Of a stretch of DNA of 64,000 nucleotides, positions 2,045 through 64,000 are shown in pieces. The stretch lies in IMG/VR virus record IMGVR_UViG_3300045988_160394, positions 64,001 to 128,000 of that record. The stretch is one strand, 5' to 3'. Position numbers and translations under genes: made by a program. The notes beneath the pieces were generated by a model. It saw nothing but the letters and a program-made list of their open reading frames with translations. It was not told where the DNA came from and ran no database searches. The stretch comes from a virus. The first letter of the stretch is position 1; every line of letters starts with the position of its first letter.

Positions 2045-2073
2045 TTTACAAACATAAATAAATTTGATATATT
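2045..2073 (+). promoter_or_regulatory. sigma70-like promoter upstream of the tRNA array
   Basis: TTTACA (2045-2050), a 17-nt spacer, then TATATT (2068-2073), about 55 nt upstream of the first tRNA. AT-rich DNA yields many chance matches. Confidence 0.4.
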
Positions 2074-2128: not shown

Positions 2129-2247
2129 GCGGGTTTCACGTAGTTTGGTTAGCGTTCTGGTCTTCAAAACCAGTGACAGGCACCATGTTCGACATGCTTT
2201 AATGTTTTGGTTATAAGTCTGCGGGGGTTCGAATCCCTCAACCCGTG
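2129..2247 (+). tRNA. suppressor-type tRNA, anticodon UCA (reads UGA), Trp-like, with a ~49-nt insertion between the anticodon and T arms
   Basis: Acceptor GCGGGTT/AACCCGT. D arm ACGT..GCGT with a GG loop. Anticodon arm CTGGT-CTTCAAA-ACCAG, giving anticodon TCA. T arm GGGGG-TTCGAAT-CCCTC. Discriminator G. No encoded CCA. The anticodon arm closely resembles bacterial tRNA-Trp, CCGGU-CUCCAAA-ACCGG. Confidence 0.75.
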
Positions 2248-2317
2248 GTCTCTCATTTAGTAAGCCTCCACGTTGGCGAGAGACGGAAACAAAATTACTA
2301 TTTTGGCTAATTACTAA
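2248..2317 (+). ncRNA. HDV-like (theta-type) self-cleaving ribozyme, copy A, abutting the tRNA(UCA) 3' end
   Basis: Nested double pseudoknot readable by eye.
- P1: GTCTCTC (2248-54) / GAGAGAC (2278-84).
- P2: TTAGTAA (2257-63) / TTACTAA (2311-17).
- P3: GCC/GGC with L3 TCCACGTT.
- P1.1: GG (2285-86) pairs with CC in L3.
- P4: AAAAT-TACT-ATTTT.
- J4/2: GGCTAA with candidate catalytic C 2307.
The core AGCCTCC..TGGCG......GGAAACA parallels the HDV genomic ribozyme, AGCCUCCUCGCUGGCGCCGGCUGGGCAACA. Confidence 0.8.
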
Positions 2318-2339
2318 GAAATCTTTATGGAGGGTTTAT

Positions 2340-2966
2340 ATGGAAGGTTATATTTATAAAATAACTAATAGCTTAAATAATAAATGTTATATAGGCAAAA
2401 CATATAAATCTATCCAACAAAGATGGAAAGAACATTTAAAATCCTGTAAAAAAGGAGAATGTTCTAATAGACCTTTATACAAGGCTATTAATAAATACGG
2501 TGTTGGCAACTTTTCTATAGAAGAATTAGGAAAGTTTGAAGAAGGTATTTTAGAAGAAAAAGAAATATATTATATAGATAAATATGATTCATATAATAAT
2601 GGCTATAACGCTACATTAGGTGGAGATGGGAAAAGATATTTCCAATATACCGATAAAGAAGTTATAGATGAATACCTTAAAACTAAAAACTTAAATATAA
2701 CATCAAAATACTTCAATTGTGATGTAGATACTATAAAAAGAATATTAGAATCTAATAGTATCGAAACATTAACAGCTAAAGAATCTATAAAAAATACTTA
2801 TGGAAGAACAGTATTAAAATATTCTTTAGATGAAGAGTTAATAGCTAAATATGAAACAGTTTCTGACGCAGCTAAAGAATTTGATAAAGGCTCTCCTGGT
2901 TCAATATCAAGATGTTGCAGAGGATTAAGAAAGACATATAAAGGTTTCATATGGAGATATTCTTAG
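2340..2966 (+). CDS. GIY-YIG homing endonuclease (I-TevI-like, free-standing)
   Basis: The N-terminus GYIYKITN...CYIGKT...RWKEH...YNATLGGDG carries the GIY-YIG motifs. GGAGGG RBS. TAG stop. No in-frame TGA. Confidence 0.85.
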   Translation: MEGYIYKITNSLNNKCYIGKTYKSIQQRWKEHLKSCKKGECSNRPLYKAINKYGVGNFSIEELGKFEEGILEEKEIYYIDKYDSYNNGYNATLGGDGKRYFQYTDKEVIDEYLKTKNLNITSKYFNCDVDTIKRILESNSIETLTAKESIKNTYGRTVLKYSLDEELIAKYETVSDAAKEFDKGSPGSISRCCRGLRKTYKGFIWRYS

Positions 2967-3014
2967 TAATAAAGACTTTTTCATACATACATTTCTCATA
3001 ATTGAGTAATATAG

Positions 3015-3040
3015 GTCACAAGTTGAAATATATTTGTGAC
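3015..3040 (+). other. 7-bp hairpin 4 nt upstream of the ribozyme B cleavage site
   Basis: GTCACAA-12 nt-TTGTGAC, followed by TAGC and then ribozyme position G1 (3045). It would form the 3' end of the endonuclease mRNA after cleavage. Confidence 0.5.
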
Positions 3041-3044
3041 TAGC

Positions 3045-3122
3045 GTCTTTCAACTAACAAGCCTCCTCGTGGCGAAAGATGGAAACAGATAGAAGTAAAA
3101 TAATTATCTGGCTAATTGTTAG
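3045..3122 (+). ncRNA. HDV-like (theta-type) self-cleaving ribozyme, copy B
   Basis: - P1: GTCTTTC (3045-51) / GAAAGAT (3074-80), with a G1-U wobble as in HDV.
- P2: CTAACAA (3054-60) / TTGTTAG (3116-22).
- P3: GCC/GGC with L3 TCCTCGT.
- P1.1: GG (3081-82).
- P4: GATA..TATC.
- J4/2: TGGCTAA (C 3112).
The stems differ from copy A only by compensatory changes. Confidence 0.8.
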
Positions 3123-3129
3123 AAAATAT

Positions 3130-3204
3130 TGCGGTATAGCCAAGTGGAAAGGCAGCTGACTTTGACTCAGCTATGCGTAGGTTCAATTCCTACTACCGCT
3201 GCCA
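3130..3204 (+). tRNA. tRNA-Gln (UUG)
   Basis: Cloverleaf with anticodon arm GCTGA-CTTTGAC-TCAGC and T arm GTAGG-TTCAATT-CCTAC. U1/U72, G73, encoded CCA. Confidence 0.8.
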
Positions 3205-3208
3205 ATAA

Positions 3209-3285
3209 TGTGGTGTAGCTCAATCGGTTAGAGCATACGTCTGATAAGCGTAAGGTTACAAGTTCAATTCTTGTCACCACAACCA
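3209..3285 (+). tRNA. tRNA-Ile (GAU)
   Basis: Acceptor TGTGGTG/CACCACA. Anticodon arm TACGT-CTGATAA-GCGTA. T arm ACAAG-TTCAATT-CTTGT. Encoded CCA. Confidence 0.8.
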
Positions 3286-3341
3286 CAACTAGATTAAAAT
3301 ATTCTAGTAAAAATATATGGTGTATATATTTGCGATGTAAA

Positions 3342-3434
3342 TAAGATAAAGCTCAGCCAGGTTAGAGCACATGGGTTATTATGAGGCATTGTAATAATAC
3401 TTTGGAGTCGTGGGTTCAAATCCCACTATCTTAT
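3342..3434 (+). tRNA. tRNA-like gene with an aberrant, elongated anticodon region (pseudo- or non-canonical tRNA)
   Basis: The acceptor TAAGATA/TATCTTA, D arm GCTC-AGCCAGGTTA-GAGC and T arm GTGGG-TTCAAAT-CCCAC are good. There are 41 nt between the D and T arms instead of about 23. That region folds as CATGG..CTTTG plus a TTATTA/TAATAA helix with an 8-10 nt loop containing CAT. Confidence 0.4.
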
Positions 3435-3443
3435 TTATATTAA

Positions 3444-3520
3444 TGCGGTATAGCTTAGTTGGTAAAAGCCCTCGATTCATAACCGAGAGATCACAAGTTC
3501 GAATCTTGTTACCGCAACCA
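3444..3520 (+). tRNA. tRNA with CAU anticodon (elongator Met, or Ile2 if lysidine-modified)
   Basis: Acceptor TGCGGTA/TACCGCA. Anticodon loop TTCATAA. T arm ACAAG-TTCGAAT-CTTGT. Encoded CCA. No initiator features. Confidence 0.8.
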
Positions 3521-3663
3521 TTATATTAAAGGTTGATTCTCCAGCCTGGAGGTGAGAAGTTGATAAAACACTCACTAAACGCCATAAAAGGTAATCACGA
3601 ATGTGAGCGTGTGATTAACTATTTTATATAGTAGAAGAGTCCCTTATCTTCCTCTATTGTTAT

Positions 3664-3738
3664 GGGAATATAGTACAAAGGTTAGTACAATCGGCTGTTA
3701 ACCGATAGATCCTGGTTCGATTCCATGTATTCCCGCCA
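3664..3738 (+). tRNA. tRNA-Asn (GUU)
   Basis: Acceptor GGGAATA/TATTCCC. Anticodon arm ATCGG-CTGTTAA-CCGAT. T loop TTCGATT. Encoded CCA. Confidence 0.8.
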
Positions 3739-3840
3739 TTTACTTACTCTCACATATATCATAAATATATAATTAAATTTTTATTCAACAAAAAGTGTGC
3801 ACTTTATTTAACACAATGACATACTTAAACCCCTGTAATG

Positions 3841-3867
3841 AGAAGTCTCGAAAGAGGCTTCTTTTTA
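3841..3867 (+). terminator. rho-independent terminator closing the tRNA array
   Basis: AGAAGTCTC-GAAA-GAGGCTTCT followed by TTTTT. Confidence 0.7.
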
Positions 3868-3909: not shown

Positions 3910-4383
3910 ATGAATAATGTTATTGAAATTGATTTAGATAATCTTAATTCAAATGAAAACCAATCATTATTAGAAGTTATTAATAAGCTTAATGATAATG
4001 TTAAGGTTAGATTTAATTTTGATTATGAAGAAATTCTAGACATGTTTTATTTTTATGTTAAAATAAATAATGAGCATGTCCAAGATATAGAATCCTATTC
4101 ATGTATAGATCCAGAGATTACTTTAAAAGAAGATGGTAATATTTATTTTGATTTAGGATTTATAGATGATGAAGAAGATATTTCAGATATTAAGTTTTTA
4201 ATAGCTGAATTTAAACAAATGTTTGGAATAAACTTAAAAAGGCAAGTAAGATTAAAACAGTTATTACAAGTAATGTTTATGAATTGTAATGAATGCATCT
4301 TACAAAATAATTTTGTTTCTGTCAGTTACTATTATGAAAATTATAATAATAGCTGGTTAAAAAAATATATAGAAAATAATTAA
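3910..4383 (+). CDS. hypothetical protein
   Basis: The ORF-track entry 3838.. is trimmed to ATG 3910. This start has an AAGGAGA RBS about 10 nt upstream, and the upstream part of the track ORF overlaps the terminator hairpin. Confidence 0.55.
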   Translation: MNNVIEIDLDNLNSNENQSLLEVINKLNDNVKVRFNFDYEEILDMFYFYVKINNEHVQDIESYSCIDPEITLKEDGNIYFDLGFIDDEEDISDIKFLIAEFKQMFGINLKRQVRLKQLLQVMFMNCNECILQNNFVSVSYYYENYNNSWLKKYIENN

Positions 4384-6973: not shown

Positions 6974-7600
6974 ATGGGAGTTATGCCAATGATAGTAGAA
7001 AAAGAAGGAAATATAGAAAGAACTTATGATCCTTACTCAAGATTATTAAAAGAAAGAATAATAATGGTGGAAGGAGCAATAAATACTCAAATGGCAAATA
7101 TAATAGTAGCTCAATTACTATTATTAGAAATGCAAGATCCAGATGCTGATATTACTATGTATATAAACTCACCAGGTGGAGAAGTTATGGCTGGATTAGC
7201 AATAGCTGATACAATGGAATTTATATCTTGTGATGTAGTAACATTAGGAATAGGAATGCAAGCTAGTATGGGTTCATTCTTATTAGCATCAGGAACTCAA
7301 GGAAAAAGATATGCTTTAAAAAGAAGTTCAATAATGATTCATAGATTATCAAGTGGAACTAATGGTGATTATCATAGCATAGAAGCTAATTTTGAACACA
7401 TAAAGAAATTACATGAGGATTTAACTAAAGATTATGTTAGATTATCAGGAGGAAAAACTTCATACGAAAAATTCCAAGAATTAATGAGATATGATAATTG
7501 GTTATCTCTTGAAGACGCTATTAAATATGGAATAATAGATCATATTATCTCAGATAGAAAATCTTTTAAAAAGGCTCTAGATGGTGACAAAGATGAATAA
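6974..7600 (+). CDS. clpP: ATP-dependent Clp protease proteolytic subunit ClpP
   Basis: Catalytic contexts are present: GMQASMGSFLL (Ser), IMIHRLS (His) and a C-terminal ..LEDAIKYGIID. The start is set at ATG 6974, 10 nt after AGGAGG. Confidence 0.9.
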   Translation: MGVMPMIVEKEGNIERTYDPYSRLLKERIIMVEGAINTQMANIIVAQLLLLEMQDPDADITMYINSPGGEVMAGLAIADTMEFISCDVVTLGIGMQASMGSFLLASGTQGKRYALKRSSIMIHRLSSGTNGDYHSIEANFEHIKKLHEDLTKDYVRLSGGKTSYEKFQELMRYDNWLSLEDAIKYGIIDHIISDRKSFKKALDGDKDE

Positions 7601-8408
7601 AGATATATTAATAGCTAAGAATGATTTTGAAGGGGTAGCTTCTGCTATCATTCTTCATCATTTATTCAATGGACAAGTAGAAATAAAGTTTTATCCTTAT
7701 AATGAACCAATAGATAAAATAGAAACAGAAAGTTGTGATATGATTTATTTATTAGGTTTAAATAAAAACAATTTAACAGGAGAGTATGATAATATAACAT
7801 GTTTAGGTTCACCAGAAGAAGTTATTGATTTAGCTAAAGCAACTAATCCTAAACTATTTAAGAATAGTAAGTTACAAGAATTCTGTAGACATACTATTGC
7901 TTATTTAGATTGGTCATGGAAAGATAAAGAATTATATTACGGAAAGAATATAGATGAATTAAGTAAATATTACAATAAAGCAAAATTAGTAGAAACTATT
8001 TCTAAAAGGATAGCTAATAAACAAGAATTAGTTACTGATGTTGAAAGACAATTAATAGTTTTCTCTAAAAAGCTTATAAGTGATTATATAGATAAAAAGA
8101 ATTATAATGTTACTTTCTTAAATGGGAAGAAAATAATATATACTTTTAGTGAAATAAATGAAATAGAATTAGCTAATAAATTAATAGAAAAAGAAGATGC
8201 AGATATGATTATAATAGCTAATTTAAACAATGGTATTGCTAGAATAAAAGCTAAAAAAGCTAAAGAATTTGAATCAGTGATATTAAATCAAGATGGAAGA
8301 GTTCATAGTAATGGTGGTACTATAAAAATAAAATCAGAGGTTATTGACGAAATAAATAATATAGTCTTTACAGATTATTTATTAAAGATATTGACAGGAG
8401 GAAATTAA
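7593..8408 (+). CDS. hypothetical protein between clpP and clpX
   Basis: ORF track. The start is ambiguous (7581 or 7593). The N-terminus KNDFEGVASAIIL faintly resembles DHH motif I. Confidence 0.5.
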   Translation: MNKDILIAKNDFEGVASAIILHHLFNGQVEIKFYPYNEPIDKIETESCDMIYLLGLNKNNLTGEYDNITCLGSPEEVIDLAKATNPKLFKNSKLQEFCRHTIAYLDWSWKDKELYYGKNIDELSKYYNKAKLVETISKRIANKQELVTDVERQLIVFSKKLISDYIDKKNYNVTFLNGKKIIYTFSEINEIELANKLIEKEDADMIIIANLNNGIARIKAKKAKEFESVILNQDGRVHSNGGTIKIKSEVIDEINNIVFTDYLLKILTGGN

Positions 8409-8410
8409 AT

Positions 8411-9637
8411 ATGAGAGTATGCTGTTTTTGTGGAAAGAAAATAGAAACAAAAGAAAATGAAGACGTAAAAATAGATGATATAATGATGATATCTCAAGAC
8501 GAAGACTATGCTATTTGTGGTCAATGTTTAAAAGAAGGATATTCAACATTATTAGAAGCTATGAAAGAAGAGGAAATAGAAATAGATGAGGATTTAACTC
8601 CTAAAAATCTTAAAGACAGATTAGATCAATGGATAATAGGTCAAGATTTAGCTAAGAAAAGATTAGCAATAGCTATTTATGACCATTATAAAAGAATACA
8701 TCAACCTGTTAATATTGATGATGATGTAGTAATAGAAAAATCTAATATTATATTAATTGGTTCTACTGGTAGTGGTAAAACAGCTTTATTAAAAGCTTTA
8801 TCTAAAGAATTAGATTTACCTTTATTAATAGAAGATGTTACTACTATAACTACTACTGGATATCAAGGTAGAAACATAGAAGATGTATTAAGTGGATTAC
8901 TTTCTGAAACTAATGGAGACGTAGATCTTGCTCAACAAGGTATAGTTTTATTAGATGAAGGTGATAAATTAAGAAAACAACCTGACGCTTCTGGTAATAG
9001 AGATGTAAAAGGAGAAGGAGTTCAACAAGGATTATTAAAAGTTGTTGAAGGTGGTGTATTTGATGTTAAATACAAAGGTATGCCAATTAAATTTGATACA
9101 TCTAATGTTTTATTTATATTAGCAGGTGCTTTTGAAGGTATAGAAAAGATAATAGCTAAAAGACAAAAAGAAAAAGCAAACATTAAAACAAATGGAGGAT
9201 TTTTAGCTCCTATAGCATCAGCAAAAGATGAAAAAGGTTTTAATGATTATATTCTTGATGTTAAGCATATAGATTTAAAAAATTATGGAATGATGCCAGA
9301 ATTATTAGGTAGATTCCCAGTTATAACTCCATTACAAGAATTATCAGTAGAAGCTTTAGTTGAAATACTAACTGAACCTAAGAATGCTATAGTTAGTCAA
9401 ATTAAAAAAAGCTTTGGATTTGATAATGTAGAAATAGAGTTTACTAAAGGTGCTTTACAAGCTATAGCTAAAAAAGCAAAAGAAAGACAAATAGGAGCTA
9501 GAGCGTTAAGAAGTATTATAGAAGAAATAATCGAAGATGCTAAGTTCGAATGTCCAGGATCAGATATTAAAAAAGTAATAATCAATGATTATTTACAATT
9601 AAAATATATAAAAAATGAAGAAGAAAAAGAAATTTAA
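8411..9637 (+). CDS. clpX: ATP-dependent Clp protease ATP-binding subunit ClpX
   Basis: N-terminal C4 zinc finger (CCFCG...CGQC). Walker A GSTGSGKT. Pore loop GYQGRN. Walker B LLDEGDK. Confidence 0.9.
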
Positions 9638-19128: not shown

Positions 19129-19773
19129 ATGACAATGAGTTTAGCAGAGAAAAGAAAGAAAATGTCCCAAATGATGGGGAAAATAAATGATAAGGTAGGT
19201 AAACAAGTAATAGGATTTGCATCAGATCCTGTTATGAAAGATAGATTAACTATCCAATGGATACCTATGCCATCATTAAGAGTTAATGAAGTAACTGGTG
19301 GTGGAATACCTAAAGGTAAGATAAGTGTTGTAGCTGGTGATTCAGATTCAGGTAAAACATCTTTAATGTTAGAAACTATAGGGTTAAACATGAAGAATAA
19401 TCCTGACTTTATGGCTTTATGGTTAGAATCAGAAGAATCTCTAGAGTTAGAAGCTTTAGAAAATGTTTTTGGTATTGATTTAGATAGATTCGTAGTAATA
19501 TATCTAGATAGAGATGGAGCAGCAGAAGTAGCTTTAGATAGATTAGAAGCTGCTTTAGGTATGGGTGTATTCGATATGTGTGTAATAAACTCATTAAAAT
19601 GTTTAACACCATCTACTGAATTTGAAAAAGCTATGGGTGAAGCTACTATAGGTATACAAGCTAGAATGAATGGTAAACTTATGAGAAAGATGACTACGTT
19701 AATAGCAGAACACGGTTGTGCTTTTGTATTAATAAACCATCTTACTACTGAGATAGGTAAAATGCATGGAGAT
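19129..19773 (+). CDS. recA: RecA/UvsX-like recombinase, exon 1
   Basis: Walker A GDSDSGKTS. Walker B CVINSLK. QARMNGKLMRKM. Ends ...EIGKMHGD before intron sequence. Confidence 0.8.
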
Positions 19774-20931
19774 TTTGCGTTAGCTGGATAATTAGTGATA
19801 TCTCATATAATAAGATATGAGGTGATAAAATTGAGATATAAATGGACTCAAAAAAAAGTAGATTTATTAAAAAAATATTATGAAGAAGGTTTAAGTAATA
19901 AAGAAATAGCTAATAAAATGGGTACTACTGTTCATAGTGTTTCTGGGAAAGCTAAAGAACTTAAATTGAGAAAAAATTTATCAAAAGTATATAATTTATT
20001 AACTGATAAAGAAAAAGAATATATAAAAGCCAATAGTTTAAAAAAATCTATCACTCAGATAGCAAAAGATCTGAATAGAGATAAAGAAACAATAAATAAG
20101 TATATTAAACAAAATAATTTAGTTACAAAATTTAATTTATTTGATCATTTAATGACTAATGAGGAATTTGTTAAAGATTTTAAAAATCCTTCATTATCAC
20201 ATGCTTTTTTAGGTAGAAAATATAATGTTACTGATTGAGTTATAAGAAAATGAAGGTTAGCAAACATAGGTAATTACAAACAAATGACAGATACTTATTT
20301 ATGTAAGTCAACTTCTGAATTAGAGGTTGAAAAAATATTAGAAGAATTAGATTTGGCTTATATTTATGAAAAGAAAATTCTTGATTGAAAAGTAGATTAT
20401 TACTTAGGCTTTAAAACTATAATAGAAGTTCAAGGTGATTACTGGCATAATCTTGATAAGGTAAAAGAAAAAGATAAACGTAAATTTAAAGAACTTCGAG
20501 ATAATGGATTTACTATTATAGAAATATGAGAAAGTGAATTATCAAATATAGATTTAATAAAAACTAAGATATTATCCAATTTTAGGGTCTCCCTTAAGGA
20601 GTAATTCTTAAGTAAAAAACTTGGTGAACTGTTTGCTTAACAGGTGTGCAATTAACGTTAAAGTAGCTATAGTAAATGATAGTTAATAATTGTGCTAACA
20701 GGGAACATTGCTAACGGCAATCCTGTGCCAAGACTTATTATCATGATAAGTAAGGTCAAGAGACTATCGAAAACAAATAATAAATATAACTCCTATAAGG
20801 AGAATAAGGTATTGTAGGATACACGAAGTGAGTAGAGTACGGTAGAGATAAGCACTACTGGAAGTGCCAAGTCCCTTATTAGTATTAAGGGTAAAGATAT
20901 AGTCCGACATCATAAAATAATTGTGATGTTG
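19774..20931 (+). mobile_element. group I intron interrupting the recA-like gene
   Basis: Exon 2 resumes at 20932, giving GD|PLVLAGGRAIRYSS. The 5' exon ends in T and the intron ends in G. AAGATATAGTCCGAC (20894-20908) matches the J8/7-P7 consensus of group I introns (Tetrahymena AAGATATAGTCGGAC). Confidence 0.8.
19831..20604 (+). CDS. intron-encoded homing endonuclease, N-terminal HTH plus C-terminal Vsr-like PD-(D/E)XK domain (four in-frame TGA codons)
   Basis: TGAs at 20236, 20251, 20386 and 20527. Read-through gives ...VDYYLGFKTIIEVQGDYWHNLDK...LRDNGFTIIEIWESEL, which resembles Vsr FVHGCFWH...VWECEL. The start is ambiguous (TTG 19831 after GAGGTGA, or GTG 19795). TAA stop at 20602-04. 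Confidence 0.65.
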
Positions 20932-21528
20932 CCATTAGTTTTAGCTGGAGGTAGAGCTATAAGATATTCTTCTATGCTTACTTTAGATATAAGAAAAAGA
21001 TCTATTCAAGAAGCAGATCCTGTATCTAGAGATGAAGGTATGAAGATAGGAGTTACTATAAATAAAAATCACTGTAGACAAGATAGAATGCCTTATTTAA
21101 AAACAGAATATTTCGTTGTTTATGGACAAGGTACAGAACGTTCTATAGAAATAATAGAATTAGCTGAAAAGTGTGGTATTCTAACTAAAAAAGGTTCTTG
21201 GTATAGAGAATATTCAGGAGAAACTGATAGTAAAGGAAATCCTATAGAAAGAATTTTATCAGATGGAACTAAAGCTGCTTGGAATGGTATGAAAAATACT
21301 AGAGCATATATCTTAAGTCATCCAGAATATTTTGATTATCTAGTAAATAAAGTTGAAAACTTTGGTCAAATAGATGTCGAAACTCTATCAGAAGAAGAAA
21401 TTCAAAGATTAGAAGAAGAACATAAGTTAGAAGAAGCTTCAGCTAGTGAACAAGATATAACTCTTGATGATATAATACAAGATCCTGATACAACTGAAAC
21501 AAAAAAATCTACTAAGAAAAAGAAATAA
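20932..21528 (+). CDS. recA: RecA/UvsX-like recombinase, exon 2
   Basis: PLVLAGGRAIRYSSMLTLDIRKRS matches RecA ..TTGGnALKFYaSvRldiRR. Acidic C-terminal tail. TAA stop. Confidence 0.8.
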   Translation, partial: PLVLAGGRAIRYSSMLTLDIRKRSIQEADPVSRDEGMKIGVTINKNHCRQDRMPYLKTEYFVVYGQGTERSIEIIELAEKCGILTKKGSWYREYSGETDSKGNPIERILSDGTKAAWNGMKNTRAYILSHPEYFDYLVNKVENFGQIDVETLSEEEIQRLEEEHKLEEASASEQDITLDDIIQDPDTTETKKSTKKKK

Positions 21529-21582: not shown

Positions 21583-22233
21583 ATGAGTTGTGAATTTGGG
21601 TATACAGATTGTAAAAATGAAGGAAAAAGATGTGATTTGTGTTTTGATGCATCAAATTATGTCCCTGCTAAACCTAAAACTCAAGGACTAAGAAAGAGAA
21701 ATACAGAAAAAGCAACTGGTAGAATGGGAGAATATTTCGAAAGAAATAATAATAAGGCTGTTAAAAATAATATTCAATCAGTTGTAACTAGTATGACACC
21801 TAACTCAGGAGCGGGTAAGGTTAAAGGTGATCAACAGATCACTGGTATGATTAGGATAATGGAAGAATTAAAGACTCAAGATCCTCACCGTGCAAGAGGT
21901 CATAATCAATTTACTATTCAACGTAAATGGTTAGATAAATTAGATAGAGAAGCTCCTGTTGAAAATATGGAATTCTGGTATCTAAAGTTTGCTTTTTGTG
22001 ATACAGATAGTAATCATTATATAGTCTTTGACGCAGATCAAATGAGAGATATGGTTGCTACTTTAATACACGACAGAAAGAAAGTAAATGATGCTGATGC
22101 TAAAGTAAAAGTAGCAGATACTAGAAGAGTATTAGCAGAAGCAGAATCAACAAAACTATTTGCAGAAGTTGAATACTTAAAAGCTATTTTAAACAAAGAA
22201 GGAATTGAGTACGATGATTATTCAGGACACTAA
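21583..22233 (+). CDS. putative PD-(D/E)XK nuclease / Holliday-junction-resolvase-like protein
   Basis: The pattern GEYFE...TPNSGAGKVKGD...IMEELK resembles the Hjc-type E..SG..D..ExK arrangement. The gene sits between two RecA-like genes. Confidence 0.35.
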   Translation: MSCEFGYTDCKNEGKRCDLCFDASNYVPAKPKTQGLRKRNTEKATGRMGEYFERNNNKAVKNNIQSVVTSMTPNSGAGKVKGDQQITGMIRIMEELKTQDPHRARGHNQFTIQRKWLDKLDREAPVENMEFWYLKFAFCDTDSNHYIVFDADQMRDMVATLIHDRKKVNDADAKVKVADTRRVLAEAESTKLFAEVEYLKAILNKEGIEYDDYSGH

Positions 22234-22933
22234 TTTACAAGAAAAAATATCTAAATCTATTTTAAAATATGAAGAGGTTTTTGGAGGCAAATATAAGATG
22301 GAACAAAAATATTTGTTGACTGGGAATAGCGTTTTAAATGAAATGCTACATGGTGGTTATAAAAAAGGTACTAGCACTGAAATAAGTGGTATGAGTGATA
22401 CAGGTAAAACTTTTTTAGCTATTAAAGCTATATTAGAAGCTCAAAAAGAAAATAAGATGACTATTTATATAGATACTACTTTAAAATTAACAAATGATGT
22501 TCTAACTGATAATAATATAGATCCAGATGGTGTAATTATTATTAGATCAAATAAAGCTGATAGTTTAGGACCTACACTTAAATCTATAATTGAACCTTAT
22601 TCTGATGAAATAGGCTTAATAATTATAGATGATTTAGCAGGCTTAACAACTTCTTATGAACAAGAATCTTCTATTAAAAAGAATACTGATATTCATAGAA
22701 GCAAAGTTGTAAAATCTTTATTGATGAGAATAAGCAATCTTATTAGAAATACTGAAATAACTTGTTTAGTAATTAATCAAGAAAGAAGCAATTTTGATAA
22801 CGAAGATATAGAAGTAGTATCTTCTTTTGAAAAATGAATTCAAATGTGTTGTGACACTAGAATCAAGCTTGTTATTGATGAAGATGGAGATGCTTGTGTA
22901 GATGTTAAATTTAAAGAAAAGAGGTTAAAGTAA
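22214..22933 (+). CDS. RecA-superfamily ATPase paralogue (RadB/Sak4-like; one in-frame TGA)
   Basis: Walker A SGMSDTGKT. Walker B LIIIDDLAGL. TGA 22835-37 extends ORF 22205..22837 to TAA 22931-33 (...SSFEKWIQMCCDTRIKL...). Confidence 0.6.
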
Positions 22934-25092: not shown

Positions 25093-27285
25093 ATGAGAAC
25101 AATGTTATTATTTAGAGGAGCCCCAGGTTGTGGGAAATCTACTCTTATTAAAGAATTAGGAATAGAACCTTATACATTATCAGCTGATGATATAAGATTA
25201 TTATTACAATCACCTCAGCTTAATGTAGATGGAACTTATTCTATTTCACAAGATAGCGAAAGTAAGACTTGGGAAATATTATTCGAAGCATTAGAAAATA
25301 GAATGTCTAGAGGAGAGTTTGTTGCTATAGATGCTACTAACTCAAAAACATCTGATATGACAAGATATAGAGATTTAGCAGATCAATATAGATATAGAAT
25401 TTATATAAAAGATTTAACAGATCTTCCTATAGAAGAATGTAAAAGAAGAAATGCTAATAGATTACCTGAATATAAAAGAGTACCAGAAGAAGTTATTGAT
25501 AATCAATATGCTAGATTCGCTACTCAAGGTATTCCAGGAAGAATTAAAAAGCTAGTAACAGATGATATTATAAAAGAAATGTCATTTGATATTATAGATT
25601 TCTCAGATTATGAAGCAGTACATGTTATAGGTGATATTCATGGATGTTATTCTGCATTAAAACAACTTATGGATGAAATATGGAATGAAAATCATTTATA
25701 CATTTTTACTGGAGACTATCTAGATAGAGGTATAGAAAATGCAGAAACTTTAAATTTTATATTTGATTTATCTGAAAATAAGAATACAATATTCTTAGAG
25801 GGTAATCATGAATTAGGTTTAAGAAACTGGGCAAATGATTTACCTGTTAAATCTAGAGAATTTAATAAAAGAACATTACCTCAAATAGATGGTAGGGTTA
25901 GTAAAAAGAAAGCTAGAATGTTCTGTAGGAATTTAAGACAATTTGCTTACTTTAAATATGGAGAAAATGTTATATTGTGTACTCATGGAGGTGTTCCTTT
26001 AGTTCCAGATAAATTATTATTTTTTCCAACTAGAAACTTTATAAATGGTATAGGAACATATCAAGAAGCTTTAGATGTAGATATGGCTTTTGAAACAAAT
26101 ATGCCAGAAAACTATATTCAAATTCATGGACATAGAAATATGGATGATATCCCTATAAATTCTACAGGAACATGGAGAAGTTTTAACTTAGAAGGTCAAG
26201 TAGAATTAGGTGGAGAATTAAGAGCCGTGTCTTTCTTTAAAGAAAATAAAATAAAAACTCATGAAATAAAAAATGATGTTTTTAGAACATATGAAGCAGA
26301 TATTCCTGATAGAGTATATAAAGAAATGACAGATGAAATGATGTTTGACATTATGGATTCTAATGAAATGGTTACTAGAAAAACATTTAAGAATGGTATG
26401 TGTAGTTTTAACTTTAAACAAACTGTATTCCAAGGAAGATTATGGGATACAGCAACTGTTAAAGCAAGAGGACTATTTTTTGACGTTGAATCAAAGAAGA
26501 TAGTATTAAGAAGTTATGATAAATTCTTTAACATTGGGGAGAGAACAAATACAAAGATCCACAACTTAAGAAATAATTTAACCTTCCCAGTTAAAGAATT
26601 TTTAAAATATAATGGCTATTTAGGGTTAGTAGGACTTCATAATGATGAATTTGTATTCGCTTCTAAATCTTCTATTAAGAATGAACATTCTAAATGGTTA
26701 GAAGATATATTTATGTTAAGAACTACTGAAGAACAAAGAAAAGCTATAAAAGAATTTATAAAAGCTACAAATACAACATTTGTATTTGAAGTGATAGACC
26801 CAGAAAATGATCCGCACATTATAAAATATAAAGAAAAAGATATAATATTATTAGATATTGTATTAAATAAACCTATATTTGAAAAAGTTCCTTATGAATC
26901 AGCTATTATGCTTGCTAAAAAGTTTGGACTTAAATATAAAGAATTAGTTAATGAATTTGACAACTGCTTAGATTTTTATACTAATTATTTAGAAACTTTA
27001 AAACCAGATTATCTTTACAATAATAAAGAAATAGAAGGTTTTGTAATAGAAGATAGTGAAGGCTTTATGACTAAGTCAAAGCTAACTTTCTATAAACAAT
27101 GGAAAATGTTAAGGGATTTAGCTCATAGATATCTTAAATATGAGCATATTAAATCAACATCTGCTTTAACTACTCCAGAAATGAATTATTTCTATGGATG
27201 GTTAAAGGATCAACCAAAAGAAGAAGTAAAAGGCAAAGATATCATATCACTTAGAGATATGTTTTATAAAAATTTTAAAAAATAA
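25093..27285 (+). CDS. pnkp: trifunctional RNA repair enzyme: polynucleotide kinase, metallophosphatase, RNA ligase (bacterial Pnkp architecture)
   Basis: N-terminal P-loop GAPGCGKST. Central calcineurin-type motifs GDIHGC, GDYLDRG, GNHE. C-terminal nucleotidyltransferase domain with a KYNGY (KxxG-type) motif. Confidence 0.75.
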   Translation: MRTMLLFRGAPGCGKSTLIKELGIEPYTLSADDIRLLLQSPQLNVDGTYSISQDSESKTWEILFEALENRMSRGEFVAIDATNSKTSDMTRYRDLADQYRYRIYIKDLTDLPIEECKRRNANRLPEYKRVPEEVIDNQYARFATQGIPGRIKKLVTDDIIKEMSFDIIDFSDYEAVHVIGDIHGCYSALKQLMDEIWNENHLYIFTGDYLDRGIENAETLNFIFDLSENKNTIFLEGNHELGLRNWANDLPVKSREFNKRTLPQIDGRVSKKKARMFCRNLRQFAYFKYGENVILCTHGGVPLVPDKLLFFPTRNFINGIGTYQEALDVDMAFETNMPENYIQIHGHRNMDDIPINSTGTWRSFNLEGQVELGGELRAVSFFKENKIKTHEIKNDVFRTYEADIPDRVYKEMTDEMMFDIMDSNEMVTRKTFKNGMCSFNFKQTVFQGRLWDTATVKARGLFFDVESKKIVLRSYDKFFNIGERTNTKIHNLRNNLTFPVKEFLKYNGYLGLVGLHNDEFVFASKSSIKNEHSKWLEDIFMLRTTEEQRKAIKEFIKATNTTFVFEVIDPENDPHIIKYKEKDIILLDIVLNKPIFEKVPYESAIMLAKKFGLKYKELVNEFDNCLDFYTNYLETLKPDYLYNNKEIEGFVIEDSEGFMTKSKLTFYKQWKMLRDLAHRYLKYEHIKSTSALTTPEMNYFYGWLKDQPKEEVKGKDIISLRDMFYKNFKK

Positions 27286-37715: not shown

Positions 37716-39382
37716 TGATAGAAGTAAAAGATTATGGACATTATTATAATGTATCATTCAATGGAGATAAGGATAATTATCATAAATTTTTTAACTTTAT
37801 GGTATCTAAAGATGATATTGTAAAATTAAAAAAGAAAACTGGATGAAAGATGCCTAAATGTTATTTACCTGAATTAGAAGAAACATTTAATAATGTTGTT
37901 GAATTAATAGCTAATCCTTGGGATTATATAGGGGAAGGTTTAAAACTTTCTCCATATTGTTATCAAAAAGAAACAATTAAATTTGGAGTAGATAATAAAA
38001 AAGGTCTATTAATTTTGCCTTGTGGTTCTGGTAAAACACCTATTCTTGTAGGTATATATCATGAACTTAGAAAGAATAATTTAACTACTAAACCAGGAGC
38101 AATTATTGTTAAAGCATCTTTAAAGTATCAATGAGTGAAAGAAGTAGAAAAATTTTCAGATTATATAGCAAAAGCCATAGAAACTCCTTCTAAAGTTAAA
38201 AAGAAATTTGATGAGCAATTTGAAAACGCTGATTTATTTATATTAAATTATGAAACATTAAAGAATAAACAAGTAGCTGCTAAGTTAAGAGAGAAGAATG
38301 TAGAAGTAATGCTATTAGACGAAATACATTACATAAACAATCATACCTCTGCTAGAAGTAAAGCTGCTTATGAATTTAATGATTTGAAGTATTTAATAGG
38401 GGCTACTGCTACGCCAATTACTAATAACCCAGAAAATTTATTTGGAATATTTAATCTTATAGAAAAAGATCTATTCCAGTCCCACAGTAAATTTGCTAGG
38501 TCATATATAAAATATGCTGGTTATGGAAGAGTAGCTGGTTGCAAAAATGAAGATCATTTAAAGAAGAAGATAGCTCCATATATATTTATTAAAAGCGAAG
38601 CAGATGTTGCTGATCAATTGCCATCTCTTGTTGTTAATCAAAAATATTGTTATATTACTAGTCCTATTATGCAAGAAACTAATGCTAAATTGTTTGAGGA
38701 ATTAGATGTAGTCAATAATCAAATTAAACAATTAGAGAAAAGATATCCTAATCCAAAAGATTTAGAATCTAATGAAGAGTTTTTAACAGCTAAAGGTAAG
38801 GTAATGGCATATCAAACTTTTCTACAAGAATTAGTAGACGATCCTAGATTATTAAATGAATCAGAAAGTAATTTAGCTAAACAATATCATTGTCAAGAAG
38901 AATCTCCTAAGTTAAAAATGCTATTTGAACTAGTAGAAGAAATAACTGAAGCTGGTAGTAAAGTATGCATATTTACTAAGTATGTTCGTATGCAAAACAT
39001 ATTACAAAGGGAATTGGAAAGATATTTCGATTTTAAATGTGTTATAATTAATGGCAGTATGACTCCAGAAGAAAGATACGAAGCTGCTTATACTAAATTT
39101 GGAGACAATGATGATTATAAAGTATTGATAGGTACTGATGCTATGGCAGAAGGAATATCTTTATCTAAGTGTAATTATCTTATAGAATATGATTTAGCAG
39201 ATTCATATGCCATTCAGACACAAAGACATGGTAGAATAAAAAGAGCTAATTCAGTTCATAAAACTGGATACGTATATCAATTGATATGCGTAGATAGTTG
39301 GGATGAAGTACAGCAAAAGATAATAGCTAAAAAAGAGAATTATGATAATAATTTAATACAGAATATAGGAGAGTGAAAATAA
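37715..39382 (+). CDS. SNF2-family helicase (three in-frame TGA codons)
   Basis: ATG 37715 (TAATG overlap). TGAs at 37847, 38132 and 39374 join an unlisted 5' part to ORFs 37850..38134 and 38135..39376. PCGSGKT. ASLKYQ[W]VKEVEKF matches the SNF2 QW..E motif. LLDEIHYI. Motif VI QRHGRIKR. True stop TAA 39380-82. Confidence 0.8.
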
Positions 39383-58092: not shown

Positions 58093-61000
58093 ATGCCACC
58101 TATTAATAAGATACCATTTAAAGTGAAATTAATGTCAGAATCATTAGCTGGCAAAAGTTATGATAAATCTAATATATCAAAACAATTTATTGTAATACAC
58201 AATATGGTTGGAACATCTGAAAGTTCCCTAAAATATTGGAATAGTGGCTCAGGTGGTCAATACACTTCTGCACATTATTGTGTAGATGATAAAGAAATTT
58301 GGCAAACTTTAAAAGATCAATGAGCAGGTCGACATTGTGGGAAACCTAGTCCTTGGGCAACTTTAAAGGGATGTAATAATAATACCTCTATTGGTATAGA
58401 AATAGCAGATATGCTTTGTAACCAAAAACAAGCTGTAGATAATGCTATTGATGTCGCTAGACATTTAGCAAAAGTTCATGGGATTCCATATGAAAATATT
58501 GTTAGACATAAGGATGTGTCTAATACTGATTGCCCAAAATGGATAGAAAGTCATAATTTATGGGATTATTTTAAAAAAGAAGTAGAAAGAAGAGATCAAG
58601 AAAACGTAGAATTGTGTTATGATCCTTCTACCGCAATATCTGGAGATGTTACACCAGGAGACAACGGTACTGCGTCACCAGAGACAGGTGGAAGTCAAAC
58701 TCTTCCTAACTTTGATAATAGGGAAGATTGAACAAATCTAAAAGAAATAAAAGGTGTTGTATTAGTTTGCATGCCTCCTCAACATTTTACTACTTTAAAA
58801 GATAAAGATGAAAAATGGGCAAAAGAAAAGTATGCTAAGGAGTTCCATTTTCTATATGATACTGAATGGAAAGAAGGTAAAGAAAAAACCTTAATAGCTA
58901 GATCATTGTTAGATAATGATAGGCACACTTATATAGAAAGAGCTTTATATAATAATAAAGCAGAAAAATCAGTATTAAGTGTAGGTATGTTTTTACCTCC
59001 TATGTTAGATGATTATCCAGCCTATGAAAAAAAATTAATAGATAATTTAGGCAAAGTAATTTATGAGAATAAATTAAACACTAAAGATCTATGGAGAGAA
59101 TTTGATTTCAATAGGACACCATCACCATTTATGTATCTTGATAGAGAACAATGGAAAAAGTTTTTAAGAGAGATAGATAAGCAAGTTAAATGGAGATATG
59201 AGAAATTTGGAGAACCTCTTCAACCAGAGAAAGATCCAACTCAAGATAATACTGATTATTCAAATATAAAAGAGAATATAGGTAAAGAAACAGTTACTTC
59301 AAGATATTGCTTATTAAGAGCAAATCCTAGCATGACTAGCCCAATAATACTGGCTTTAGAAAAGGATGTGCCTTTAACAATTACAGATGCAGATACTAGA
59401 GGCTATTATAAAGTTAAATTAGCAACAAATCAAAAAGAAGGTTGGTTAGTCGCTAAGAGCGTTAAAATAGAAAAAGAAGAAGAAAAAGCTACTTTAAAAC
59501 CATTAGTATTAGCTGCTGTTAAAGAAAAAGATATTCCTCAGCCAGAGATAACTCCAACTATGACTCATGACCAATATTTAAAATGGAAAGAACTAACCGA
59601 TCCTAAATTAATAGATGAATTTGTTGGAGAGTGTGAACCTTACGATAAAGGACTAAAAGAAATCATAGATTCAGCTGTTAAAAATGATGATAGATTAACA
59701 TCTTTAACTAAGAATATGGAAACAGAGAATAACTCTACTATTAATTATTCAGTTACAGAAGCATCACCAGGAGATTCTGGTCATTGTGTTAAGCCTTCTG
59801 CTGAACTTAATGTATTAATAAAACCTAGAGAATCTATAAAAGTAGATCCTGTTTATCCTGATTTAATTGTTCCTCCAAATTACACTCCAACTGATTATAA
59901 TATAAGGTCTCAAAATTCTATTCCTATGGCTACATTAGAAGACGGATCTTTAATAAAAGACGCTAAAGATTTCGATAATGATCAATTAACGTTTGATTAT
60001 GAGCTATTAAATGATAAGAAAAAGATATCTAAAGGTAAACCTATTAACTATTTGGACCCTTATCCATATGATGATAAAATAATAGAACTAGAAAAACATC
60101 ATCCTAAAGTAAAGATAGATGAAATAGAAGCTAGACTATATGAAAGCAATCATCCAGGGGACCCTAGTTCACAACCAATGGCTAAAAATTTTGCATTGGT
60201 TTATGATGCTATGTTAAAACAATCTAGTAGTATAGAGAAAAGACTTGTGAAGATAGAAAATGTATTAGCTAATGTATTACGTAATCAAGGTAGAATTGGT
60301 TCAAGAATAAACGTAAATTGTGTTTATTATGGAGGTCAAGACTCCTTTGGAAAATATAAAACAATTAGATGTTTATGTGATGATAGAATACATGATGCAA
60401 GTTCTGTTACATTAGACCAATGTTTATCTTGTACTAGATACGAACCTATCTTAGGACAAGTATATGATATTCTAGATGATACAGGTATGAATGGAACTGT
60501 ATTCTTAGATAACATGCAAATGGGTTATATGAATTTAGATGATTTAAAAAATCTTAATAGAGTTGAAAAAAGATGTACTTCTAATGAATATGCAAATGTT
60601 AATAAAGAGATGGAAAAACCAGAATCTCAAATTAAGAGATGGGAAGAATCTGATAAGAAGATATATATAGAATCTCTTAAGAAAAAGATTACTGACGAAA
60701 AGGAATTAGATAAAAAGATAAAAGAGATAAAACAAGAAGATTATAGCTTCAAAATGAATTGGTATGAGCAAGATTTAGATGTTCAAGAACCAGATGTAAA
60801 ACCTTATCCATTAGAGGGAATTAAAGCTAGGTATAAAAAAATAAATCTAAGTAATCCAGGAGAAGAATCAGATAACTATCTAGAAAAAGAATCTGTATTA
60901 GATGATTCTACAGATCAAGATACTATAAAAGATATGACTGATTTAGAGAAATTAAATAATGGAGAATGGGTTGATACTAGAGAGGAAGCTGATACTACTG

Positions 61001-63017: not shown

Positions 63018-64000
63018 TTTATTATATGGGTGTCGAAAGACTCTTGTTGTTGGTGTACTACGGAGTGTCCCTTAAGCACTTTAAAACCATCAATGGGTAT
63101 GGACATTTAAAACCCATGCCACTGTTCCGTGAATGACGGGTATCGTAAGAGTAGAATATCATTCACTTGTATTGTATGCAATATTAGTCAAGGATAGAAA
63201 TGGCTTCTATCACGCTACTAAAAAGTAGTTGTCAGAGATGTAGGGTTGCCAAACTTACTAACTAATTAGCAAAACTAACTTCGGTATCAAATGATTCAAC
63301 TTTATAGCTAGTGTAATGTCCGTTAAGCATTTAAAAGCTATATGATCAATGAAACTTATGAAAGGCAGAATTATAAGTGGAGATCATCATTCAGGTTTAT
63401 AGTTAGATCCTGTTATGCTTACTTTATTGAATTATAAAATAATCTTTAAAAATAAAATTAATAATGGCGTTAATTGAAAATCTTTTATCACAATAAAACA
63501 ATAAAGGAAAAACATAAAAAAGCTATAATCATAACGATCATACTGATATTTCCTACGGGTTGTCAGTTAATAAATGGAGGCGAGTTGTCCGCAGAATTAA
63601 CCGTAATAGTGGGGATTAATACACTAGGCAATAAATCTACTCCTACATCTAATAGGGTTAGTAGTCTTAGAAAGACTATAATCTTAAAAGGGCAAGGTAA
63701 CAGCTAGAGCACAAATCCTAATCTGAGAAGTTAGGTCGCATTAAGTGGTAAGACACTATTTTTTAAATAAAATCAGTTACTAAAATCTTAATTGACGTGA
63801 GCATTCTTCTTCAGCTATTAATGAAGATGAAAATAAGTCTCTTCTCAGCAGTTGAGTATATGCTATGACTAGTAAAATAGTCTATCCAATATGAGGAGAA
63901 ATATCATATGCGTGGTGGATACAGGTGTATGACATATAGCAGGTCAGTTACCATCGCACTGGCTGTCAATTTAACCTGTAATTTTAATAGAGATCCCCCT
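63018..64000 (+). ncRNA. ORF-free, GC-enriched, helix-rich region: candidate large structured RNA or intron (truncated by the window end)
   Basis: No credible ORF in any frame, even with TGA read as sense. Many local hairpins:
- GTC-GAAA-GAC
- CATGGGT..ACCCATG
- GTGAATGA..TCATTCAC
- GATAGAA..TTCTATC
- TAGTCTT-AGA-AAGACTA
There is a long-range complement, CTGAGAAG (~63725) / CTTCTCAG (~63842), and a repeated motif GTCCnTTAAGCAyTTTAAAA. The strand assignment is assumed from context. Confidence 0.45.

Follow-up and report, generated by a model that had tools for sequence, protein, structure and literature searches.

A candidate self-cleaving ribozyme between an opal suppressor tRNA and a homing endonuclease gene in an uncultivated phage

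The sequence analysed here (the window) is a stretch of 64,000 nucleotides covering positions 64,001 to 128,000 of IMG/VR record IMGVR_UViG_3300045988_160394. Bases 2248–2317 of the window (plus strand) were identified as a hepatitis delta virus (HDV)-like ribozyme, referred to as ribozyme no. 1, lying directly behind the gene for an opal suppressor tRNA, tRNA(UCA). This identification is supported by model scores, by shuffle controls and by compensatory changes in orthologues. The ribozyme is followed by a gene for a GIY-YIG homing endonuclease. From the sequence we estimate a probability of about 80% that 2248–2317 encode a functional self-cleaving ribozyme, which would be part of the same transcript as tRNA(UCA) and would free the tRNA from the endonuclease mRNA.

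Structure of Ribozyme No. 1

The 70 bases of 2248–2317 form a complete HDV-type double pseudoknot that starts directly 3' of the tRNA discriminator base, G2247. From 2248 the elements follow in the HDV order P1, J1/2, P2, P3, L3, P3', P1', P1.1, P4, J4/2 and P2' (P, paired region; J, joining region; L, loop), and the sequence divides accordingly as GTCTCTC-AT-TTAGTAA-GCC-TCCACGTT-GGC-GAGAGAC-GG-AAACAAAATTACTATTTTGG-CTAA-TTACTAA. P1 begins at G+1 and joins 2248–2254 (GTCTCTC) to 2278–2284 (GAGAGAC) with 7 of 7 pairs. J1/2 comprises 2255–2256. The P2 pseudoknot, also with 7 of 7 pairs, joins 2257–2263 (TTAGTAA) to 2311–2317 (TTACTAA). P3 is a helix of 3 bp between 2264–2266 (GCC) and 2275–2277 (GGC). 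The 8-nt L3 (2267–2274, UCCACGUU) matches the required U-C-C-N-C-G signature, and its C2268 and C2269 pair with G2285 and G2286, located after P1, to give P1.1. P4 is a helix of 6 bp (2290–2295 with 2300–2305) with a 4-nt loop, in a segment of 20 nt overall. J4/2 (2307–2310) reads C2307-U-A-A, in agreement with the C-N-A-A motif, and its first base, C2307, is the putative catalytic cytosine. No helix and no conserved nucleotide of the HDV core was missing.

A preliminary description of the window, made from its letters and ORF translations without database searches, had proposed this fold, and P1, P2, P3, P1.1, P4, J4/2 and C2307 were all found where it had placed them. It had called the fold minimal. 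Although compact, the fold has a genuine P4 helix and so is not minimal as the term is used in the literature.

Model Scores and Shuffle Controls

The Rfam model RF02682 (HDV-F-prausnitzii) aligned over its full length (1–74) to exactly 2248–2317 with a score of 31.4 bits (E = 2.9e-4, search of 301 nt). A check with Rfam covariance models had been suggested in the preliminary description; it gave an end-to-end match but not a score above the gathering threshold. A default gathering-threshold Rfam search of the window reported neither 2248–2317 nor 3045–3123 as a ribozyme. The second of these sites contains ribozyme no. 2 (3045–3122, plus strand), an HDV-like resident copy located 7 nt before a tRNA-Gln gene and recognized by RF02682, covariance model R2 and the descriptor. 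Its sequence is GTCTTTC-AA-CTAACAA-GCC-TCCTCGT-GGC-GAAAGAT-GG-(P4)-CTAA-TTGTTAG. RF02682 gave 36 bits for 3045–3123, which is again below the gathering score of 44.

The descriptor included P3, the L3 signature, P1.1, at most one mismatch in each of P1 and P2, a G at +1 and C-N-A-A. It matched two sites in the window (2248–2317 and 3045–3122) compared to none in 1000 dinucleotide-preserving shuffles, with both strands searched. A core-pattern scan of IMG/VR returned more than 119 loci. From 56 of these loci a lineage-seeded model recruited 119 ribozymes, 75 of which were unique. Covariance model R2 was trained on the recruited IMG/VR phage sequences only, with the window sequences left out, and gave 67.7 bits (E ~9e-12) for 2248–2317 and 69 bits for 3045–3122. 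No further match was obtained with this model in the window at E ≤ 1. The nested helices alone had a folding energy of −16.6 kcal/mol (z = −2.58).

Two other interpretations of 2248–2317 were ruled out. The region has no T-run and was not listed in the terminator scan, so it was not taken as a terminator. No open reading frame (ORF) of 40 amino acids or more overlaps it, so it was not taken as coding sequence.

Covariation and Related Ribozymes

Ribozyme no. 1 was aligned with its orthologue in the related genome L141, with ribozyme no. 2 and with the variant of ribozyme no. 2 in the related genome L134. When the double pseudoknot was written out, 95 of the 95 cells held standard pairs. Changes on both sides were seen at five pairs: three belong to P2, and P1 and P4 have one each. 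In controls with the partners slid by 1–3 columns pairing was 31–60% and there were no changes on both sides. The positions of P3, the L3 signature and P1.1 were invariant in this alignment and provide no covariation evidence. In L141, which encodes an endonuclease with 77% protein identity to that of the window, the ribozyme again lies directly 3' of the tRNA discriminator (G73). Relative to ribozyme no. 1 it carries two compensatory P2 pairs, compensatory P4 pairs and a change from G1-C to G1.U.

A larger set of 64 parsed ribozymes comprised 60 unique IMG/VR relatives and four from this phage group. These contained 32 distinct P1 and 36 distinct P2 sequences with pairing retained. The mean number of pairs (out of 7) was 6.7 for P1 and 5.9 for P2, compared to 4.5 and 3.9, respectively, with mismatched partners. 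C-N-A-A was found in all 64, although J4/2 was located by the parser through this same motif. Of the 75 unique IMG/VR relatives, at least 12 begin no more than 6 nt from the 3' end of a tRNA called by ARAGORN. L3 of ribozyme no. 1 has one extra U compared to most relatives; the 8-nt form was also found in the tRNA-adjacent copies of loci L003 and L071.

Other arrangements of HDV-like ribozymes were seen among these loci. In IMGVR_UViG_GVMAG-M-3300023210-15_000001 (L083) six are located among tRNA genes within 1.3 kb (7311–8596, minus strand), five of them beginning 4–10 nt after a tRNA 3' end. In L012, L017, L028 and many other IMG/VR loci, P4-bearing HDV-like ribozymes of gut phages directly follow a short hairpin, not a tRNA. 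Such hairpins end in CCA or TCA, as in GGCGCGGGTAACTCCGCGCCA before the initial G, and the hairpin before ribozyme no. 2 of the window is similar. The tRNA array of L141 has a further HDV-like ribozyme with a long P4 insertion, which starts 4 nt after tRNA-Ser(GCU). The same array gave a match to drum RNA of 51.5 bits, above the gathering score; these two L141 features lie at 3691–3819 and 3919–4033 (plus strand).

tRNA(UCA) and UGA Decoding

The tRNA(UCA) gene is 119 nt long (2129–2247, plus strand). It was not called by ARAGORN on the window. The preliminary description had nevertheless recognized it, and it is confirmed as real by its cloverleaf fold, a score of 47.9 bits with the Rfam tRNA model, the anticodon UCA and an end at G2247. 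The tRNA has a G1.U72 pair, the discriminator G73 (G2247) and a variable region of 49 nt which folds as a long arm. It has no encoded CCA. The Rfam alignment of 2129–2247 contains a 47-nt insertion in the variable region and its last position is G2247. Ribozyme no. 1 starts at 2248, an offset of 0, so the proposal that it starts exactly after the discriminator was correct.

In-frame TGA codons were found at 38132, 58321, 58729, 14362 and 14530 (plus strand), in a SNF2 helicase gene, a 1388-codon amidase ORF and a LAGLIDADG endonuclease ORF which sits between gyrB and gyrA. The TGA of the helicase gene (38132–38134) lies at a conserved tryptophan (Trp) position, where it aligns with the Trp of the motif LKNWEEE in 1z63, a SNF2/Rad54-family helicase of solved structure. 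The amidase domain runs across the TGA at 58321. The genome needs tRNA(UCA) because several genes, as seen from the helicase motif and the amidase domain, require UGA read-through. This bears out the earlier statement that the tRNA enables the recoding. Massive genome-wide recoding was ruled out. Under genetic code 11, ORFs of at least 100 amino acids already cover 86% of the window, in-frame TGA occurs in a handful of genes only, and the opal recoding is sparse.

The amino acid carried by tRNA(UCA) is likely Trp, judging from the conserved-Trp site, G73 and G1.U72, which is A1-U72 in relatives. The A1-U72 pair was found in the tRNA(UCA) of L147 and L148, the latter being an ordinary tRNA of 75 nt with G73. 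The anticodon arm and variable-arm base of the window tRNA share a stretch of approximately 25 identical nt with a bacterial selC-like gene (L145). A serine or selenocysteine identity was considered from this match, and the sequence evidence appears to favour Trp.

A 734-bp Block Distinguishes Sister Genomes

Relatives of the phage were recovered only through exact-protein look-ups in ENA and Logan. Samples that contain the phage include ERZ1756024 and SRR14099252. The locus had no BLASTn match among GenBank phages, and searches of IMG/VR with the close-paralogue pattern and with a 22-mer of tRNA(UCA) gave 0 hits each, so the lineage was regarded as absent from GenBank phages and IMG/VR.

Comparison with sister genomes defined a block of 734 bp (2248–2981, plus strand) which consists of ribozyme no. 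1, a spacer, the GIY-YIG ORF and a tail of 15 nt. The spacer is 22 nt long (2318–2339, plus strand) and contains the Shine-Dalgarno sequence GGAGGG at 2329–2334. The endonuclease gene (2340–2966, plus strand) encodes 208 amino acids and matches Pfam PF01541 (E = 3.2e-9).

The arrangements at this locus were designated types A to D. In type C (the window, L131, L132 and L135) G73 is followed by ribozyme no. 1, the GIY-YIG gene, a hairpin spacer, ribozyme no. 2 and tRNA-Gln. In type D (L133, L134, L136 and L146) the tRNA ends in G73-CCA and is followed by the same spacer, ribozyme no. 2 and tRNA-Gln, with neither ribozyme no. 1 nor the endonuclease gene at the tRNA(UCA) end; scaffold_5 of ERZ28582848 is of this type. 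Type B (L141) consists of G73, a ribozyme, the GIY-YIG gene, 17 nt and tRNA-Gln. It has no second ribozyme between the GIY-YIG gene and tRNA-Gln and looks like type C without the tail, the spacer and ribozyme no. 2. Type A (L147) reads G73-C and has a resident-type ribozyme (70.3 bits) one base after G73 and no endonuclease gene.

Compared to type C, type D lacks 2248–2981 in one piece and has a single C instead, giving the tRNA G73-CCA; the junction reads ...CCCGTGCCATACATACATT... One base differs between the two types at the block junction. The missing CCA of the window tRNA goes with the block, because the other tRNAs of the array encode CCA and the block-free sisters read G73-CCA. The lack of an encoded CCA, pointed out in the preliminary description, thus holds for this genome but is secondary. 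Genomes carrying the block were assembled from several samples, which indicates that they are viable. Since genes interrupted by TGA persist in these genomes, their tRNA must have remained functional, which argues that the junction is processed.

The ribozyme of the block is of a distinct type. This cassette type (P1 GTCTCTC, a C5-G33 pair in P1 and its own P4) differs from the resident type (P1 GTCTTTC) and was found only alongside the GIY-YIG gene, in two right-hand contexts, those of L141 (type B) and the window (type C).

More distant homologues of the endonuclease were found without a ribozyme (49–53% identity). Those in other phage tRNA arrays have spacers of 110–130 nt. A role of the ribozyme as general companion of this GIY-YIG family was ruled out, as no HDV-like element was present in L138–L140, L143, L144 and L148–L150. 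By sequence the family seems to home next to tRNA genes, like SegB of phage T4 (PMC2330249), and the ribozyme seems to be a lineage-specific addition to its locus.

Transcription Unit and tRNA Array

A promoter-like site (2045–2073, plus strand) is located 55 nt upstream of tRNA(UCA). It consists of TTTACA, 17 nt and TATATT, matches the consensus at 10 of 12 positions and has a TG before the −10 hexamer. Identical hexamers and spacing were found upstream of the tRNA in L141 and L147. No promoter or terminator was found by scanning between tRNA(UCA) and the GIY-YIG ORF, where the 22-nt spacer is too short for a separate promoter, and the next terminator-like hairpin (3840–3863) comes after the tRNA array. 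The tRNA, ribozyme, endonuclease mRNA and array are therefore probably one transcript.

The spacer following the block (2982–3044, plus strand) is common to the sister genomes and contains a hairpin (3015–3021/3034–3040) which ends 4 nt before ribozyme no. 2. Ribozyme no. 2 is present in every relative of type A, C or D. The tRNA array (3130–3738, plus strand) encodes tRNA-Gln, tRNA-Ile, tRNA-Met and tRNA-Asn, each with an encoded CCA. Within the array, 3341–3432 (plus strand) form a tRNA-like cloverleaf with acceptor, D and T arms in which a 12-bp hairpin with a 4-nt loop replaces the anticodon arm. This cloverleaf received no ARAGORN or Rfam call and its hairpin has a 10-nt deletion in L135. 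At approximately 3639–3656 (plus strand) the sequence GAGTCCCTTATCTTCCTC represents the 3' end of a former tRNA-Ser(GCU) gene, which is intact in L133 and L147. Approximately 0.5–1 kb was lost from the window array at this position.

Proposed Mechanism

Ribozyme no. 1 would be transcribed together with tRNA(UCA) from the promoter-like site at 2045–2073. In the folded ribozyme, C2307 and a bound Mg2+ would then promote attack by the 2'-OH of G2247 on the phosphodiester that joins it to G2248, so that cleavage is predicted between G73 of the tRNA and G1 of the ribozyme. The 5' product would be a tRNA ending exactly at G73 with a 2',3'-cyclic phosphate. The 3' product would be an RNA with a 5'-OH which starts with the ribozyme and carries the endonuclease mRNA. 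The cyclic phosphate would be removed, possibly by a phage kinase-phosphoesterase-ligase protein, and CCA would then be added by a CCA-adding enzyme, assumed to be that of the host.

A candidate for the RNA end-healing and sealing enzyme is encoded at 25093–27285 (plus strand). It has a kinase domain, a lambda-phosphatase-like metallophosphoesterase domain and an Rnl1/Trl1-like ligase domain (Pfam AAA_33, Metallophos and RNA_lig_T4_1), with relatives in the PDB. This protein could remove the 2',3'-cyclic phosphate made by the ribozyme, or it could repair tRNAs cut by host defence nucleases.

The block lies exactly between G73 and the CCA of the sister genomes, and the ribozyme would therefore be the RNA-level boundary of the block. 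In the proposed mechanism the ribozyme would keep the suppressor tRNA usable despite the insertion and so make the insertion harmless.

Several points weigh against a functional ribozyme with this role. With RF02682 the region scores 31.4 bits, short of the curated gathering threshold of 44. The test with covariance model R2 is not fully independent because the architecture of the model was inherited from one seeded on the window's own sequences. G1 pairs with C where U is canonical, although the commonest published sequence of the theta ribozymes, discussed below, likewise has G1-C. P4 is composed almost entirely of A-U pairs. No CCA-adding enzyme was seen in the window. The type D sister genomes do without a ribozyme at the tRNA end. 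In the more distant phages L148 and L149 a GIY-YIG gene of 52% identity begins 31 nt behind a 75-nt tRNA(UCA) that has CCA, and there is no ribozyme. The ribozyme is thus dispensable for both of its partners, since type D and L148/L149 do without it.

Origin and Role of the Ribozyme

How the ribozyme came to lie at this junction was considered separately. One tentative reading is that it is the 5' module of a mobile unit of ribozyme and GIY-YIG gene which has the 3' end of the suppressor tRNA gene as its homing site and silences its own insertion by RNA cleavage. This fits the restriction of the cassette-type ribozyme to the neighbourhood of the gene, in two right-hand contexts, and a similar order of elements in IMGVR_UViG_3300024259_000010 (L018). 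There, 1327–2357 contain a phage transfer-messenger RNA (tmRNA) ending in CCA, directly behind it an HDV-like element and then an HNH-like ORF, which is the gene order of the window. The HDV-like element (1756–1825) has an A at +1 and is followed after 12 nt by the ORF, which is HNH_3-like with a helix-turn-helix; the HNH match is below the Pfam cut-off.

It may equally be asked whether the ribozyme is an ordinary resident element of the theta type for tRNA maturation, with the endonuclease landing downstream of it and the 734-bp block representing donor flank that was co-converted during homing. This explanation is plausible without being compelling. L147 has a ribozyme one base after tRNA(UCA) and no endonuclease gene, all three ribozyme types are homologous and about equidistant from one another, and relatives of the endonuclease occur in tRNA arrays without any ribozyme. 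Free-standing homing endonucleases are also known to drag flanking DNA along, as described for SegB (PMC2330249). However, the ribozyme beside the endonuclease gene belongs to a type of its own, found only with that gene, and in both L141 and the window. The window retains the resident copy too, and the block is missing as a single piece in type D.

It is rather unlikely that the ribozyme mainly serves the endonuclease mRNA by giving it a defined 5'-OH end and a cap-like 5' fold for stability or translation, with release of the tRNA as a by-product. The ORF lacks a separate promoter, its Shine-Dalgarno sequence begins 12 nt downstream of the ribozyme and the order in L018 is the same. Ribozymes which shape the 5' end of mobile-element RNAs are also known, for example in the R2 retrotransposon (PMC3774820). 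Against this, the endonuclease homologues of 49–53% identity are expressed from tRNA arrays without a ribozyme, and cleavage is predicted exactly at the tRNA discriminator base, a precision for which an mRNA has no need.

An inactive relic or chance look-alike, that is a hairpin-rich spacer which has lost cleavage, would suit the sub-threshold RF02682 score, the G1-C pair and the extra U in L3, but is very improbable given the absence of descriptor matches in 1000 shuffles, the E-value of ~1e-11 with the phage-derived model R2, the compensatory changes that keep the helices in L141 despite an endonuclease of 77% identity, and the occurrence of the 8-nt L3 in tRNA-adjacent L003 and L071 and in published minimal-drz entries.

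Genome Context

The source genome is that of an uncultivated metagenomic phage of approximately 263 kb with a G+C content of 28%. The window covers a region of replication and nucleotide metabolism with genes for gyrase B and A, Pol III alpha, NrdD, UvrD, a split RecA, ClpP, ClpX-like proteins, primase and others. In Pol III alpha the nearest GenBank phages were at most 33% identical and were human-faecal contigs and Bacillota phages. RecA is split into an N-terminal ORF (19129–19791) and a C-terminal ORF (20923–21528, plus strand) approximately 1.1 kb apart, probably by insertion of an intron or homing endonuclease, and a further RecA-like ORF is located at 22205–22837. A skipping-rope RNA (Rfam RF02924) was found at 63183–63266 (plus strand) with 57.6 bits, above the gathering score.

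Comparison With Known Systems

The preliminary description had referred to theta ribozymes next to tRNAs in recoding gut phages, and this class has indeed been described. Theta ribozymes are tRNA-associated minimal HDV-like ribozymes of gut Caudoviricetes (Kienbeck et al. 2024, PMC10879173). In vitro self-cleavage has been shown for four tRNA/theta pairs, and activity is lost when the catalytic cytosine is changed to U (PMC10879173). Cleavage sites lie within ±5 nt of the tRNA 3' end, 77% of them within ±1 nt, and RNA-ligase genes are strongly enriched in the phages that carry these ribozymes (PMC10879173). Of the suppressors associated with theta ribozymes 99.7% are amber, and there was no code-4 genome among those phages (PMC10879173).

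Ribozyme no. 1 shares with the theta ribozymes an HDV-like core with U-CC-NCG in L3, GG in P1.1 and CUAA in J4/2. Its predicted cleavage site likewise abuts the 3' end of a CCA-less suppressor tRNA in a stop-recoded phage, and the window genome, like those of the theta phages, encodes an RNA-ligase-type end-repair enzyme. It differs in its 6-bp P4 within a 20-nt segment, compared to an L4 of 5–8 nt in the theta entries listed, and in its L3 of 8 nt compared to 7 nt. Among the entries listed, those with the 5-nt L3 tail (ACGTT) all belong to the looser first-iteration list of the paper. The 8-nt L3 matches that of genomic HDV and of a few first-iteration "minimal drz" entries, for example that of L003. 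Given the P4 helix and the L3 tail, ribozyme no. 1 most likely fails the strict RNArobo search motif for theta ribozymes, and its exact sequence is not among the theta entries listed in the tables of PMC10879173. Furthermore, its suppressor tRNA is opal (UCA) whereas the theta suppressors are nearly all amber, the tRNA that it follows is unusual at 119 nt, and it is linked to a homing endonuclease gene. Endonucleases are not mentioned in PMC10879173, and the literature searched contained no paper joining HDV-like ribozymes with phage homing endonucleases.

The best Rfam match, RF02682, represents the HDV ribozyme of Faecalibacterium prausnitzii. It is collinear with ribozyme no. 1 in P1, P3, L3, P4 and J4/2, and the J1/2-P2 region of ribozyme no. 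1 is shorter. The GIR1 lariat-capping ribozyme of twin-ribozyme group I introns is located just upstream of a homing endonuclease ORF and forms the 5' end of the mRNA for that endonuclease. GIR1 acts by branching and resides in a self-splicing intron of eukaryotic rDNA; the window locus has no intron and HDV-type chemistry is expected. The R2 retrotransposon offers an analogy, being an element in a structural-RNA gene that is co-transcribed with it and has at its 5' edge an HDV-like ribozyme which cleaves precisely at the junction (PMC3774820). R2 is a eukaryotic retroelement in 28S rDNA whose ribozyme RNA is a transposition intermediate, whereas the element described here is a DNA-level block in a phage tRNA locus. 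Like the window gene, segB of phage T4 is a GIY-YIG gene among phage tRNA genes and is polymorphic between related phages (PMC2330249). Unlike at the window locus, no ribozyme has been described beside segB, and the window protein is at most 38.5% identical to annotated phage GIY-YIG proteins.

The idea that ribozymes mature phage tRNAs dates only from 2024, and such a role inside cells is still a proposal. The locus described here widens the association from amber to opal (UGA, probably to Trp) suppressors and to P4-bearing HDV-like ribozymes, which are probably outside the published search motif. It also provides a natural experiment, in that near-identical genomes of ~263 kb differ only by the block and have either G73 followed by the ribozyme or G73-CCA followed by the spacer. 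The tRNA ends and the suppression in type C compared to type D bear directly on ribozyme-made tRNA 3' ends in vivo. The linkage suggests that small self-cleaving ribozymes can travel with homing endonuclease genes and neutralise their insertion into RNA genes. If true, a mobile unit of this kind would give homing endonucleases a third strategy in addition to self-splicing introns and inteins, and at the level of DNA elements it would be the counterpart of the ribozyme of R2 retrotransposons. By its sequence and position, ribozyme no. 1 is best regarded as of the theta type in predicted function and in location and as a variant of the class published in 2024, to which it adds the opal-suppressor context, the linkage to an endonuclease gene and a pair of genomes with and without the block.

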